Source: Marinigracilibium pacificum (GTDB taxonomy: Bacteria; Bacteroidota; Bacteroidia; Cytophagales; Cyclobacteriaceae). From it: a stretch of DNA of 64,000 bases. Positions 29,901-35,794 of the stretch are shown piece after piece (within the stretch, counting starts at the first letter, position 1; each line of letters starts with the position of its first letter). The DNA lies in the NCBI RefSeq assembly GCF_012926615.1, contig NZ_JABBNU010000010.1, positions 114,629 through 178,628 on the forward strand, given 5' to 3'. The position numbers and the translations under genes were made by a program. Below the pieces are notes generated by a model, which saw only the letters and a list, made by a program, of their open reading frames with translations, was not told where the DNA came from and did not search any database.

Positions 29901-29928
29901 AAAAGAGGACAGAATATGTCCTCTTTTC
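29901..29928 (-). terminator. rho-independent terminator downstream of rtcB
   Basis: AAGAGGACAtattctGTCCTCTT hairpin followed by a T-run on the minus strand. Confidence 0.55.
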
Positions 29929-32838: not shown

Positions 32839-32881
32839 TCGGATCCTAAGTCCGGCGTGCTACCAATTACACTACCCTAAG
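32839..32881 (-). pseudogene. tRNA fragment: 5' half of a tRNA-Leu(TAG)-like gene (acceptor, D-arm, anticodon arm; no T-arm or 3' end)
   Basis: Minus strand CTTAGGG-TA-GTGT-AATTGGTA-GCAC-G-CCGGA-CTTAGGA-TCCGA. D-stem/loop with GG and a U33/anticodon-TAG loop, but no matching 3' half downstream. Confidence 0.45.
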
Positions 32882-32882
32882 T

Positions 32883-32950
32883 GATGATTAGGAGTGGGAT
32901 TCGAACCCACAATTCAAGGGTTTGTTGCTATACCGCTTAGCTACATAATG
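32883..32950 (-). pseudogene. pseudo-tRNA (D-arm and canonical T-arm present; acceptor stem does not pair; anticodon loop non-canonical)
   Basis: Minus strand CATTATG-TA-GCTA-AGCGGTA-TAGC-...-GTGGG-TTCGAAT-CCCAC-TCCTAATC. Confidence 0.45.
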
Positions 32951-32955
32951 TATTA

Positions 32956-32990
32956 CATAATGGAGGGATTCGAACCCTCGTACACAAACA
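32956..32990 (-). pseudogene. tRNA 3'-end fragment (tRNA-Ser-like T-arm CGAGGGTTCGAATCCCTC + CATTATG)
   Basis: Canonical T-arm with no upstream D/anticodon arms. Followed by 8-nt direct repeat ACATTATG shared with the adjacent pseudo-tRNA. Confidence 0.4.
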
Positions 32991-33156
32991 AATGGTGGGA
33001 ATCATTTTTGCCAAAACACAGCATATCCTTACGGATACTATGGAGCCATACAGAGACTCTCATCAGGTTATTTTGGTTATATATTCCCTTCGCTTTTCAC
33101 TCTGTGAAAAGATCTTTAGTGCTGAAAGCACAATATTTTATCAAAGAACAATCTTG

Positions 33157-33240
33157 TGGGGAAGACAGGAATCGAACCTGCTCAGCCATAAAGCACCGGA
33201 TTTACAGTCCGGCCCAACTCTCCATCTTTGGCGCTTCCCC
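33157..33240 (-). tRNA. tRNA-Tyr (anticodon GTA), type II with long variable arm
   Basis: Minus strand GGGGAAG-CG-CCAA-AGATGGAGAG-TTGG-G-CCGGA-CTGTAAA-TCCGG-(14-nt variable arm)-GCAGG-TTCGATT-CCTGT-CTTCCCC-A. All stems pair. Confidence 0.85.
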
Positions 33241-33386
33241 TTTTCATAACCCCTCTGCCATTTGCAGAGGGGGCTTCTTAATTCGGGATGCTTTTATCCC
33301 GTTTGATATTTCAAAAGTCAGCACCTACTGCGCAATGTTTTTGCGTAATAAATATTATTTTCATTTTTTTATAAAAAAAATTATTT

Positions 33387-34997
33387 ATGCCTGTAACAAG
33401 AAATGCCCTAATCAGATACAAAACCATTGATAATTGCCTTAGAAACAGACAAAAAAGATGGACTTTGGATGATTTAATTAATGTCTGCTCTGAAGCATTA
33501 TATGAATTTGAAGGAATTGATAAAGGTGTTAGTCGTCGAACTGTGCAAATGGATATTCAAATGATGCGCAGTGAAAAACTTGGTTATAATGCGCCCATCA
33601 TTGTAGTAGACAGGAAGTATTACACTTATAAAGATCCCGAATACTCGATCACTAATATTCCATTGACAGATAAAGACCTGAACAAACTCACAGAAGTGAC
33701 AAATATTTTAAAACAATTTAAAGGGTTTTCGCATTTCAAAGAATTATCAGGAATGGTACAAAAGTTGGAAGACAAGATACATGTATCCAAAACAAATGAG
33801 CATCCAATTATTGATCTTGAGAAAAATGAAAATTTAAAAGGTTTAGAATATATTGATCCGGTTTATAAAGCAATTCTTAATAAAAAATCACTTTCACTGG
33901 AATATCAATCATTTAAGGCCAGAAAGGCAAATACGTTTAAATTCCATCCGGCATTATTGAAGGAATTTAGAAATCGTTGGTTCGTTTTAGGAAAAAGAAA
34001 TCAAAACTCAGGATATGTCCTTTTAGCGTTAGACCGAATCAATAGTCTAGAAATAGGCGAAACAAGCTGCATTAACTTTGATCAAAATGAAATAGCCAAC
34101 TATTTCAAGCATGTGATAGGTGTGAGCACCGGCGGAATATTGCAAGAAGTAATTTTGTTAGTTGATCATAGTAATGCTCCTTATGTATTAACAAAGCCTA
34201 TTCACCACAGTCAAGAGGTAATAAACATATCTGATGAAGGAGTAACAATAAAATTAAATGTCCAGCTAAATTTTGAATTAGAAAGGGAGATCTTAGGTTT
34301 TGGAGATCGAATGAAAGTAATTTCTCCTCCCCGGTTAAGATCAATTATAAAACAACGGTTAAATCATGCTATTGATTTATATACTACGGAGTTAAATGAA
34401 CAAAAGCTTCACAATTATAAACCACGATTAGAGCACAAAGGATCTATAATCACAAATTATGTATTCAGTCGTAAAGAGATAGGTCAAATAGGAAGAATAA
34501 TTCAGTATTACCAAAACACCAAAACACCAAAACTGAAAAATATTGATAATTTAATTGATGAAATCCCTGATCTGACCAAAATAATTTTAAACTTCAATTT
34601 GAAAAGAATAATAGAGTCTATTTCTGAAAAATGGGAAATCTGTAATACTTATTTAAACTTAAAACCAGAAACAACAACAGATAAAATAAAGTGGCATCAA
34701 GATCAAATTATATATAAATATGAGGATGCTATAGATAAGATATTCACCATTTTTATTCATCTGGATGAAGTAAATATTGAAAATGGATGTTTATCAATAA
34801 TTCAAGGATCACATAAACAAGTTCATACAAAAGAGAAAATTGAAATCATATCTTCGAGTAGTATTCCTTCAAACTGTGAAGTAAATGCAGGAGGAATTCA
34901 AATTGTGAAGTCTGGAATAATTAGAAGATATAATAGTTCTGAAATTAACCGTATCAGAAGGACAATTCGAATTGACATAAAAGAAGTTGACGATTAA
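33387..34997 (+). CDS. WYL-domain transcriptional regulator (HTH-WYL-WCX, PafBC-like) fused to C-terminal PhyH-like (phytanoyl-CoA dioxygenase-fold) domain
   Basis: N-terminal wHTH (VSRRTVQMDIQMMRSEKLGYNAPIIV). WYL core (FRNRWFVLGKR...LALDRINSLEI). C-terminal KWHQD ... ENGCLSIIQGSHK PhyH-like motifs, but the distal His position appears to be Tyr (IIRRYNSSEINR). Confidence 0.65.
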   Translation: MPVTRNALIRYKTIDNCLRNRQKRWTLDDLINVCSEALYEFEGIDKGVSRRTVQMDIQMMRSEKLGYNAPIIVVDRKYYTYKDPEYSITNIPLTDKDLNKLTEVTNILKQFKGFSHFKELSGMVQKLEDKIHVSKTNEHPIIDLEKNENLKGLEYIDPVYKAILNKKSLSLEYQSFKARKANTFKFHPALLKEFRNRWFVLGKRNQNSGYVLLALDRINSLEIGETSCINFDQNEIANYFKHVIGVSTGGILQEVILLVDHSNAPYVLTKPIHHSQEVINISDEGVTIKLNVQLNFELEREILGFGDRMKVISPPRLRSIIKQRLNHAIDLYTTELNEQKLHNYKPRLEHKGSIITNYVFSRKEIGQIGRIIQYYQNTKTPKLKNIDNLIDEIPDLTKIILNFNLKRIIESISEKWEICNTYLNLKPETTTDKIKWHQDQIIYKYEDAIDKIFTIFIHLDEVNIENGCLSIIQGSHKQVHTKEKIEIISSSSIPSNCEVNAGGIQIVKSGIIRRYNSSEINRIRRTIRIDIKEVDD

Positions 34998-35086
34998 GTA
35001 CAACAATTAACCTTAAAATTCAATTTCAATGAACCGTTTAAAAAACAATATTATTATATTTGTCCGCTTTATTTTACTTAAATATC

Positions 35087-35794
35087 ATGGGAAGAGCATT
35101 TGAATTCAGAAAAGCGCGTAAGTTCAAGCGCTGGGGCCAGATGGCTAAGACCTTTACCCGTATCGGTAAAGATATTGTAATTGCAGTTAAAGCCGGTGGA
35201 CCTGACCCGGATACAAACTCAAGGCTACGTGCAATCATGCAAAACGCCAAGGCAGCCAATATGCCTAAAGATAATGTTGAGAGAGCAATAAAAAGAGCTT
35301 CCTCAAAAGAACAGGGCGATTATAAAGAAGTATTATTTGAAGGTTATGCACCTCATGGAATAGCTATTCTTGTTGAAGCTGCTACTGATAATAATAACCG
35401 TACTGTTGCCAATGTACGTAGCTACTTCAATAAATGTGATGGTAGCCTGGGCACTTCAGGATCGGTTGAATTCATGTTCGATCACAACTGCCATTTCAAG
35501 ATAAATAAAGAAGGCATCGACATTGAAGAGTTAGAACTTGAGCTAATTGATTTTGGTGCAGAAGAAATCTTTGATGAAGAAGACGGAGTAATGGTTTATG
35601 GATCCTTTGAAAGCTTTGGAGCTATCCAGAAAGCTCTGGAAGAAAAAGGTATCGAGATTATCTCTTCGGGCTTTGAACGTATCCCTACAGTTACGAAAAG
35701 TCTATCAGAAGAAGAAGCTGCAGATGTAGAAAAGCTATTAGAAAAATTTGACGATGACGATGACGTTCAAAACGTCTATCACAATATGGTTTAA
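35087..35794 (+). CDS. yebC: YebC/PmpR-family DNA-binding regulatory protein
   Basis: MGRAFEFRKARKFKRWGQMAKTFTRIGKDIVIAVKAGGPDPDTNSRLRAI is highly characteristic of YebC/TACO1. ORF track start 35060 is likely upstream of the true start. Confidence 0.85.
   Translation: MGRAFEFRKARKFKRWGQMAKTFTRIGKDIVIAVKAGGPDPDTNSRLRAIMQNAKAANMPKDNVERAIKRASSKEQGDYKEVLFEGYAPHGIAILVEAATDNNNRTVANVRSYFNKCDGSLGTSGSVEFMFDHNCHFKINKEGIDIEELELELIDFGAEEIFDEEDGVMVYGSFESFGAIQKALEEKGIEIISSGFERIPTVTKSLSEEEAADVEKLLEKFDDDDDVQNVYHNMV

Follow-up and report, generated by a model that had tools for sequence, protein, structure and literature searches.

Outside the proteobacterial regulator RtcR and the cyanobacterial regulator TrcR, the way in which bacteria sense RNA damage in order to switch on RNA repair is largely unknown. 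RtcR, which is composed of CARF, AAA+ and helix-turn-helix (HTH) domains, is a sigma54 activator of rtcBA/rsr-Y RNA operons in Proteobacteria and senses damaged tRNA (PMC7790460). Under translational stress in Anabaena, the ribbon-helix-helix repressor TrcR co-regulates the trn tRNA L-array together with rtcB and a slipin gene (PMC10272220, PMC8421152). Aravind's group, citing a 2016 paper, has suggested that transcription factors with CARF and WYL domains may sense RNAs with cyclic-phosphate ends and that some of them regulate RNA-repair pathways; a general link between WYL proteins and RNA repair was already predicted there (PMC9503650). The WYL proteins DriD of Caulobacter and PafBC of Actinobacteria are activators of DNA-damage regulons. 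The subject of this report is a gene for a WYL protein at positions 33387-34997 (+) of a 64,000-nucleotide stretch of contig NZ_JABBNU010000010.1 of Marinigracilibium pacificum (Bacteroidota), referred to below as the window. The best explanation of the findings, with a probability of roughly 0.7, is that this gene encodes a dedicated one-component transcription factor of a Bacteroidota RNA-repair island and that the protein carries a vestigial oxygenase domain.

The open reading frame (ORF) is real, and its 536-amino-acid (aa) product, hereafter the regulator, is identical to the NCBI entry 'WYL domain-containing protein [Marinigracilibium pacificum]'. Pfam profiles identified a WYL domain at residues 155-223 (PF13280, E 3.3e-10, 40.3 bits compared to a cut-off of 21.8), a WCX domain at residues 254-326 (PF25583, E 1.2e-9, 38.8 bits compared to a cut-off of 23.9) and a PhyH match at residues 408-478 (PF05721, E 6.9e-10, above the curated cut-off) that covered profile positions 78-152 of 213. 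NCBIfam models gave weak similarity to ectoine hydroxylase and chlorinating enzymes, and the N-terminal HTH was matched weakly by Pfam HTH_11 (E 0.44). In the AlphaFold2 model, which was built from an input alignment of 38 sequences, the N-terminus formed a winged HTH (wHTH) with helices 5-19, 27-40 and 50-61 and a beta-hairpin at residues 71-81. The mean predicted local distance difference test (pLDDT) score of the model was 78, with values of approximately 85-93 across the WYL, WCX and C-terminal domains. The HTH region was 95% identical between the regulator and its sister from Mangrovivirga and contained many invariant columns, and the WYL residues invariant in the family were kept (Y173, S175, F176, K192, R195, N196, R197, W198 and F199).

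When the model was compared to the Protein Data Bank (PDB) with Foldseek, the first ~330 aa matched DriD (E 2e-14) and PafBC, with E values of 2e-14 to 5e-12 across these two, and the alignment spanned all three N-terminal domains over 338-356 columns; the WCX region could be aligned to the C-domain of DriD. The last ~200 aa matched GriE, EctD, FtmOx1, SnoN/SnoK and a proline hydroxylase with E values of ~1e-10 and TM(target) scores of 0.5-0.66. The profiles, the model and the structural matches bear out both the ORF and the order HTH-WYL-WCX followed by a PhyH-like domain that had been read from the DNA in a first-pass annotation. The regulator is almost certainly a wHTH-WYL-WCX transcription factor. 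Judged by its sequence and model, it belongs to the class of WYL one-component regulators, with a WYL domain, a WCX domain, a wHTH and a palindrome near its own gene to which it is predicted to bind.

The regulator gene is divergent from a unit consisting of a tRNA-Tyr-like gene, a structured non-coding RNA (ncRNA), an SPFH gene and an RtcB gene (Table 1). In a scan of one genome per species, a relative of the regulator was found in at least 566 species genomes, essentially all of them Bacteroidota. A sample of 80 loci with 10-kb flanks was collected, in which 49 full-length loci with at least 8 kb of upstream DNA were informative for gene neighbourhood. By tblastn, a divergent upstream RtcB was found in 39 of the 49 informative loci. 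By clustering of ORFs, 46 of the 49 had at least one of RtcB (38 loci), SPFH, RlaP, PrfH, Ro60/Rsr or tRNA genes on the divergent side. Two types of RtcB occurred, 50-83% and 26-29% identical to the RtcB of the window, and both were confirmed by Pfam. Clustering of the flanking ORFs and scanning of representatives identified, as further island proteins, two RlaP nucleotidyltransferases, PrfH (RF-1 domain), Ro60/TROVE, a tetratricopeptide repeat (TPR) protein and two unknown proteins. According to citing papers, RtcB, SPFH, RlaP, PrfH and Ro60 are components of the RNA-repair systems catalogued by Burroughs and Aravind in 2016 (bioRxiv 10.1101/312249). Downstream of the regulator, no gene family was conserved beyond lineage-level synteny in the sampled loci.

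The first-pass annotation had seen no flanking defence operon, had left the regulon unknown, and had proposed that the neighbourhoods of homologues be surveyed for BREX, CBASS, CRISPR or repair genes. Conserved linkage and the predicted operator described below now point to the divergent SPFH-RtcB RNA-repair unit, and the survey yielded RNA-repair genes and tRNAs; the conserved neighbours were all RNA-repair components or tRNAs, with no gene of BREX, CBASS, CRISPR or another defence system seen among them. A phage-defence regulator of the BrxR/CapW type might be suggested by the PADLOC WYL 'associated signalling' models, which matched the regulator with an E value of 8e-22. However, these models describe generic WYL domains, and with no conserved defence neighbours this very improbable alternative was rejected.

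The regions upstream of the regulator genes shared an inverted repeat with the consensus ctAsTGCGCA-gTCTTTT-TGCGyAGTa, in which a 9-bp repeat is separated by a 7-bp T-rich spacer. In 62 of 76 loci the core CGCA-N7-TGCG was present at most 400 bp upstream of the ATG, and its centre usually fell at -45 to -53; approximately 0.5 such loci would be expected by chance. Over 1.41 Mb of loci it occurred 120 times compared to approximately 21 expected. All 57 additional occurrences were on the operon side and none was downstream of the regulator. These extra sites directly preceded repair units (RtcB, SPFH, TPR-PrfH, Rsr, RlaP pairs and tRNA arrays) and nearly always shared one absolute orientation. 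A profile anchored on 105 sites revealed a nearly invariant CAAAG 15-19 bp to one side of the palindrome, which on the operon strand reads nAnCTTTG and is the -7 box of Bacteroidota sigmaA promoters. This box has the consensus TAnnTTTG and is located at -12 to -5 (PMC9723704). Since CAAAG is the -7 box, the palindrome in the target promoters is centred at approximately -31, in place of the -33 TTTG, and no -33 TTTG was found on that strand.

In the window, the site upstream of the regulator scored 45.5 with the position weight matrix (training median 46.4); the next best site scored -5.5 and the maximum in shuffled sequence was 12.3. This is the only such site within the 64 kb. Its centre lies approximately 49 bp upstream of the regulator ATG and approximately 31 bp upstream of the predicted minus-strand transcription start site (TSS) of the divergent unit at ~33307, whose promoter is without a -33 TTTG and has the palindrome at that position. 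A scan for sigma70-type promoters found 12 compared to 22 expected, and the sigma70 model is uninformative for Bacteroidota. It is very probable that the regulator controls the divergent tRNA/ncRNA-SPFH-RtcB unit through the predicted operator.

The C-terminal domain was examined in an alignment of the 120 best homologues, all of which have WYL and WCX domains (with or without PhyH) and most of which are 575-580 aa long. The regulator and its nearest relative, that of Mangrovivirga (532 aa), are approximately 40 aa shorter than most of them. The WHQD (residues 436-439), ENGCL and GSH (474-476) motifs pointed out in the first-pass annotation are all present, and the family consensus reads TWHQD ... 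HLDD..NGAL..GSH ... LLLHxS ... RRV. The HxD columns hold His in 116 and Asp in 114 of the 120 sequences, with H437 and D439 in the regulator, and the pair of 2-oxoglutarate (2OG)-binding Arg columns hold Arg in 114 and 118, with R524 and R525. The column of the distal His holds His in 113 of the 120 sequences, R513 in the regulator and Lys in the sister. Loss of the distal His and an incomplete triad had been proposed before and stand, but the Tyr that was thought to replace it (Y515) lies two residues past the column, at a position where the family has Ser. In an intact member (P0008) the entire Pfam PhyH profile was matched (2-213/213, E 1.6e-14), and its 'lilHasS...RR' segment aligned with 'lvHgSgpN...RR' of the solved oxygenase 4xaa, which comprises the canonical distal His and the 2OG-binding Arg.

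The decay of the domain is broad. A family-specific insert of ~25 aa after HxD (INVxxKxExxGYxGWTKKxxxxGVxPP) and a C-terminal tail of ~15 aa (ELPxGLxWAE) are deleted in both the regulator and its sister, and the regulator has substitutions or deletions at 23 of 42 near-invariant positions, defined by conservation of at least 95% in the 163 intact members. That the short C-terminus results from a frameshift or truncation artefact was rejected: no more than 62 bp lie between the stop codon and the next gene, the reading frame continues across the internal deletion, and both features are shared with the sister genus. Because synonymous sites between the two genes were saturated (pS ~0.75-0.8), dN/dS (the ratio of nonsynonymous to synonymous substitution rates) was not computable, and identity by domain was compared to that of intact pairs instead. 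The regulator and its sister shared 88% identity over residues 1-330 but 45% over the PhyH-like domain. Among intact proteins, the 249 pairs whose N-terminal identity was 85-90% had C-terminal domains that were 79.8 +/- 4.1% identical, with a minimum of 62.8%. The nonsynonymous divergence (pN) of the PhyH-like domain was 0.36, well below the saturated synonymous divergence (pS) of 0.79, and the reading frame was intact in both genera. These two findings and the confident prediction of the fold indicate that some constraint on the domain remains.

Since the distal His is absent, the regulator is a pseudo-enzyme as far as oxygenase activity is concerned, and its oxygenase domain is in all likelihood catalytically inactive. 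The domain resembles the PhyH oxygenases EctD, GriE, FtmOx1, AviO1/EvdO and PHYHD1 in its double-stranded beta-helix fold, HxD, NG..GSH and 2OG-binding Arg. The family differs from them in being fused to a transcription factor and, in its intact versions, in being basic (pI ~8.9) and having a family-specific insert; the copy in the window differs further in having neither distal His, insert nor tail. Non-canonical triads exist in the 2OG oxygenase superfamily, as in halogenases that are without the carboxylate. With this precedent, and with HxD and the 2OG-binding Arg intact, activity through a non-canonical third ligand (e.g. H476 or Y515) or a two-ligand site can be imagined, but it is highly unlikely given the Arg in the distal-His column (Lys in the sister), a Pfam match confined to profile positions 78-152 compared to 2-213 in intact members, and the broad loss of invariant residues.

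The first-pass annotation had favoured co-option of the domain as a small-molecule sensor. Such a non-catalytic sensor of a small molecule, or of 2OG or a metal, that modulates the regulator would be consistent with a fold retained at high model confidence, with the conservation of H437, D439, R524/R525, NG and GSH, with a domain kept in frame in two genera with pN below pS, and with the persistence of degenerate versions in several lineages, where not all have been deleted. It was nevertheless considered unlikely, and decay was favoured: constraint is strongly relaxed (45% identity compared to the 79.8 +/- 4.1% expected), the insert and tail are gone together with 23 of 42 invariant positions, ~13 family members do without the domain and yet share the operator, and the degenerate lineages showed no new conserved pocket signature in common. 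In the Marinigracilibium/Mangrovivirga lineage the C-terminal domain is most likely a structural appendage kept under weak constraint.

Across the family, the fate of the domain was followed in 193 unique members. A complete H-D-H-R site was found in 163 (~85%), approximately 13 (335-341 aa) had no PhyH domain at all, and approximately 15 were degenerate, in ~9-10 or more lineages whose nearest neighbours are intact. An active oxygenase fusion, which the first-pass annotation had allowed for in case the triad proved complete, therefore applies to the family at large (163 of 193) and not to the protein in the window. Repeated loss has thus affected the catalytic residues and even the entire domain, whereas conservation of the regulator core has remained high. 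We infer that the C-terminal domain was originally a complete Fe(II)/2OG oxygenase that went specifically with RtcB-type islands. The intact domains are highly conserved across orders and basic on average (net charge +5.5 +/- 4.0, isoelectric point 8.9), which hints, weakly, at a conserved anionic and possibly nucleic-acid substrate rather than a variable xenobiotic. Several members with a degenerate triad, namely those of the window and of loci L001, L009, L021 and L056, are still paired with RtcB, and therefore catalysis is not needed to maintain the pairing.

The paralogues without a PhyH domain carry the same palindrome as the fused regulators. Their neighbours were SPFH and Hen1 in one locus (L068) and a T4-type RNA ligase and a PNKP kinase-phosphatase in another (L076). 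These paralogues lie beside other RNA-repair systems, and the regulator core and the palindrome are thus tied to RNA repair in general; in the sampled loci, the oxygenase fusion goes with RtcB-type islands.

Taken as a dedicated transcription factor of the RNA-repair island, the regulator could work as follows. A dimer of the wHTH would bind the palindrome centred at approximately -31 of promoters that have a -7 box and are without a -33 element, and the bound regulator would recruit or adapt RNA polymerase, as PafBC and DriD do. The trigger would be the binding of a nucleic-acid damage signal by the WYL domain, and this signal would most plausibly be RNA or tRNA fragments, by analogy with the CARF domain of RtcR. 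In the window, the regulated unit would run from the predicted TSS through the leader hairpins, the tRNA-Tyr-like gene, the Y-RNA-like ncRNA, SPFH and RtcB to the terminator at ~29901, and the same site probably also autoregulates the regulator gene. In this lineage the distal His is missing (R513 in the regulator), a lid-like insert and the C-terminal tail are gone and more than half of the invariant positions are lost; the oxygenase domain is therefore most likely catalytically dead.

An activator that responds to an RNA-damage signal was given about an even chance. Activation is favoured because the site has a PafBC-like position and because the closest solved structures, DriD and PafBC, include complexes of these activators bound to RNA polymerase. 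The site of PafBC reportedly replaces the upstream promoter element ('sigma adaptation'). The likeness to DriD and PafBC consists of the same wHTH-WYL-WCX architecture and fold, the logic of a stress-repair regulon, and an operator in place of the upstream promoter element, for PafBC again as reported. In contrast, sequence similarity is marginal (E 0.02-0.6), the regulon of DriD and PafBC serves DNA repair and that of the regulator RNA repair, single-stranded DNA is the ligand of DriD and PafBC, and the regulator has an extra C-terminal PhyH-type domain and promoters of the Bacteroidota -7/-33 type.

Several points weigh against the proposed reading. BrxR and CapW are WYL repressors whose operators also overlap promoters, and repression is a serious rival. 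A factor other than the regulator could bind the palindrome, the TSS of the operon at ~33307 is a prediction, and the interdomain geometry of the AlphaFold2 model is uncertain (pTM 0.55). H437, D439 and R525 survive in the sequence, and weak binding of metal or 2OG may be possible.

As a BrxR/CapW-like repressor, the regulator would have the same regulon and operator but would occlude the -33 region both at the repair promoters and at its own promoter until a WYL ligand releases it. The predicted operator spans approximately -43 to -19, a stretch in which sigma region 4 could be blocked by a bound dimer; defence-system WYL regulators are presented as repressors in the introduction of one paper (PMC11888443), Aravind's group predicts negative WYL transcription factors in other conflict operons, and the functional analogue TrcR is a repressor. 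However, the target promoters keep the -7 box and have no TTTG at -33 on the transcribed strand, a pattern typical of promoters that depend on an activator, and the closest solved structures are the activators DriD and PafBC, with BrxR and CapW not among the top 50 structural matches of the model in the PDB. Repression was therefore considered possible but the less probable mode.

As an activator or otherwise, the regulator is not a homologue of RtcR, which is a functional analogue only. The two are alike in that a dedicated regulator with a nucleic-acid-sensing domain is divergent from an RtcB repair operon that includes Ro/Y RNA (PMC7790460). In contrast, they share no domains: the regulator has WYL in place of CARF, no AAA+/sigma54 module, and sigmaA promoters with a -7 box, and neither CARF nor a sigma54-interacting AAA+ domain of the RtcR type was matched in it by Pfam or NCBIfam. 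The likeness to TrcR lies in one regulator over an inducible tRNA array, RtcB and an SPFH/slipin protein, but TrcR belongs to an unrelated protein family and has a direct-repeat operator, and its targets are dispersed in Anabaena and clustered here. No paper describing the WYL-PhyH fusion, the operator, the promoter geometry or the Bacteroidota tRNA arrays was found in the literature searched, which did not cover Burroughs and Aravind 2016 (NAR 44:8525).

The remaining parts of the divergent unit also have counterparts elsewhere. The Band-7/b7a-tRNA/RtcB repair system predicted by Burroughs and Aravind in 2016, as summarised in bioRxiv 10.1101/312249, has parts that are all present in the window, namely RtcB, a Band-7/SPFH protein and a tRNA-like gene. 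The tRNA-Tyr(GUA)-like gene sits at the position of the 'band-7-associated tRNA', and a similar element was matched in at least 10 other loci. In 27 of the 80 loci, tRNA genes on the operon strand separated the regulator from the repair genes, either singly or in arrays of up to 19; tRNA-Tyr(GUA) (16 loci) and tRNA-Pro(UGG) (15 loci) were the commonest. By analogy with the cyanobacterial trn L-array, the arrays look like regulated spare tRNA pools, and in Bacteroidota islands they appear to be undescribed.

The ncRNA block was matched in at least seven other loci. In an alignment of nine copies, tRNA-like modules followed a 5' motif, CCUGAUGAGAGUUUCUGUAUGGCUCCAUAGU, that was almost invariant, and RNAalifold predicted 46 pairs, 30 of them with compensatory changes. 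The modules are a T-arm, a closed acceptor-like hairpin and a D-arm inside a closing stem, and they resemble the tRNA-like domain of YrlA Y RNAs; the Rfam YrlA match was weak and below threshold (positions 32900-33002, 25 bits compared to a gathering score of 69). The ncRNA probably represents an undescribed family of Y-RNA-like molecules in Bacteroidota. In combination with the tRNA-Tyr gene it fits the 'band-7-associated tRNA' and YrlA cofactors whose presence beside Band-7/RtcB was predicted by Burroughs and Aravind, as summarised in bioRxiv 10.1101/312249. In six other loci, the gap upstream of SPFH contained nothing at the Rfam gathering threshold. A hammerhead ribozyme, suggested by the conserved CUGAUGAG in the ncRNA, was rejected, as Rfam gave no hammerhead match at E<=1. 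The tRNA-fragment hotspot that the first-pass annotation placed beside the regulator gene exists, but it does not consist of debris. An origin of the tRNA fragments as integration scars was rejected, since both the tRNA-Tyr-like gene and the ncRNA recur in many loci with compensatory changes in base pairs.

With this regulator, RNA-repair islands gain a widespread regulator family with a predicted operator, a promoter architecture and a defined regulon, and a predicted common switch connects SPFH and RtcB with inducible tRNA arrays and Y-RNA-like RNAs in Bacteroidota. The damage signal, the roles of SPFH and of the tRNA-like RNAs, and the reason for the oxygenase fusion in RtcB-type islands thereby become directly testable, and the gene in the window, as a member with a decayed oxygenase domain, provides a natural 'catalytic-dead' control for its intact orthologues. 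A broader and more tentative proposal, to which somewhat less than an even chance was given, is that the family is a hitherto uncharacterised, phylum-wide master regulator of RNA-damage responses in Bacteroidota that uses one operator; its oxygenase, which is usually intact and unusually basic, would add a second input of an enzymatic kind or would modify RNA in conjunction with RtcB-type repair. If so, one palindrome would switch on islands with RtcB, Pnkp/Hen1, Rnl ligases, Ro/Y-RNA or SPFH/tRNA-like cofactors, PrfH, RlaP and arrays of up to 19 tRNAs, and the fused oxygenase would resemble Ada as an enzyme-regulator or Hen1 as an 'immunising' modifier of the repaired RNA.

Table 1. Features of the window and of the other loci (L numbers) cited in the text.
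Feature	Position	Strand	Remarks
Regulator gene	33387..34997	+	wHTH aa ~1-100, linker helices, WYL 155-223, WCX 254-326, PhyH-like ~335-536
WYL domain, putative ligand sensor	33849..34055	+	aa 155-223
WCX domain	34146..34364	+	aa 254-326
Degenerate PhyH-type double-stranded beta-helix domain	34389..34994	+	H437/D439 at 34695-34703, R513 at 34923-34925
Predicted operator, inverted repeat TACTGCGCA-ATGTTTT-TGCGTAATA	33326..33350	.	Full site TACTGCGCAATGTTTTTGCGTAATA
-7 promoter box of the divergent unit, GACTTTTG	33312..33319	-	Consensus TAnnTTTG
Two leader hairpins, predicted TSS to tRNA	33284-33301 and 33250-33272	-	Stable
tRNA-Tyr(GUA)-like gene, first gene of the divergent unit	33157..33240	-	Rfam tRNA score rather low, 44 bits
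Conserved structured ncRNA, YrlA/Y-RNA-like	32839..33069	-	Between the tRNA-Tyr-like gene and SPFH
SPFH/Band-7 protein, 369 aa	31446..32555	-	PF01145, E 3e-32
RtcB RNA ligase, 471 aa	29991..31406	-	PF01139, E 2e-80
Terminator-like hairpin ending the RtcB unit	29901..29927	-
tRNA arrays of 8-19 genes	L040:8166-9816, L042:2978-4994, L045:3241-5308, L032:9061-9861, L014:5968-7354	all -	After the same palindrome
SPFH and Hen1 beside a PhyH-less paralogue	L068:2364-5154
T4-type RNA ligase and PNKP kinase-phosphatase beside a PhyH-less paralogue	L076:7789-9838
Unannotated island/TPR proteins, examples	L046:9329-9907, L047:7945-8262, L058:6324-6860	all -
YebC/PmpR-like protein	35060-35794	+	Downstream of the regulator
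Multi-pass membrane protein, 1388 aa	36363-40529	-	Downstream of the regulator

A few further observations were made in the sampled loci and in the window. Inspection by eye, with no formal test, revealed GC-rich hairpins at the leader position equivalent to that of the window in L001, L007, L040 and L061. Three conserved island proteins carry no functional annotation, namely one of 193 aa (11 loci), one of 105 aa (7 loci) and the TPR protein (20 loci); they often accompany PrfH in Flavobacteriaceae. The single locus from a metagenome-assembled genome labelled Bacteroidales (L072) had the degenerate triad H-P-G-K, and this single case is compatible with loss of O2-dependent activity in an anaerobe. 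Downstream of the regulator gene in the window lie genes for the YebC/PmpR-like protein and the multi-pass membrane protein; both are probably unrelated to the regulator, as they are not conserved with it beyond the sister genus.

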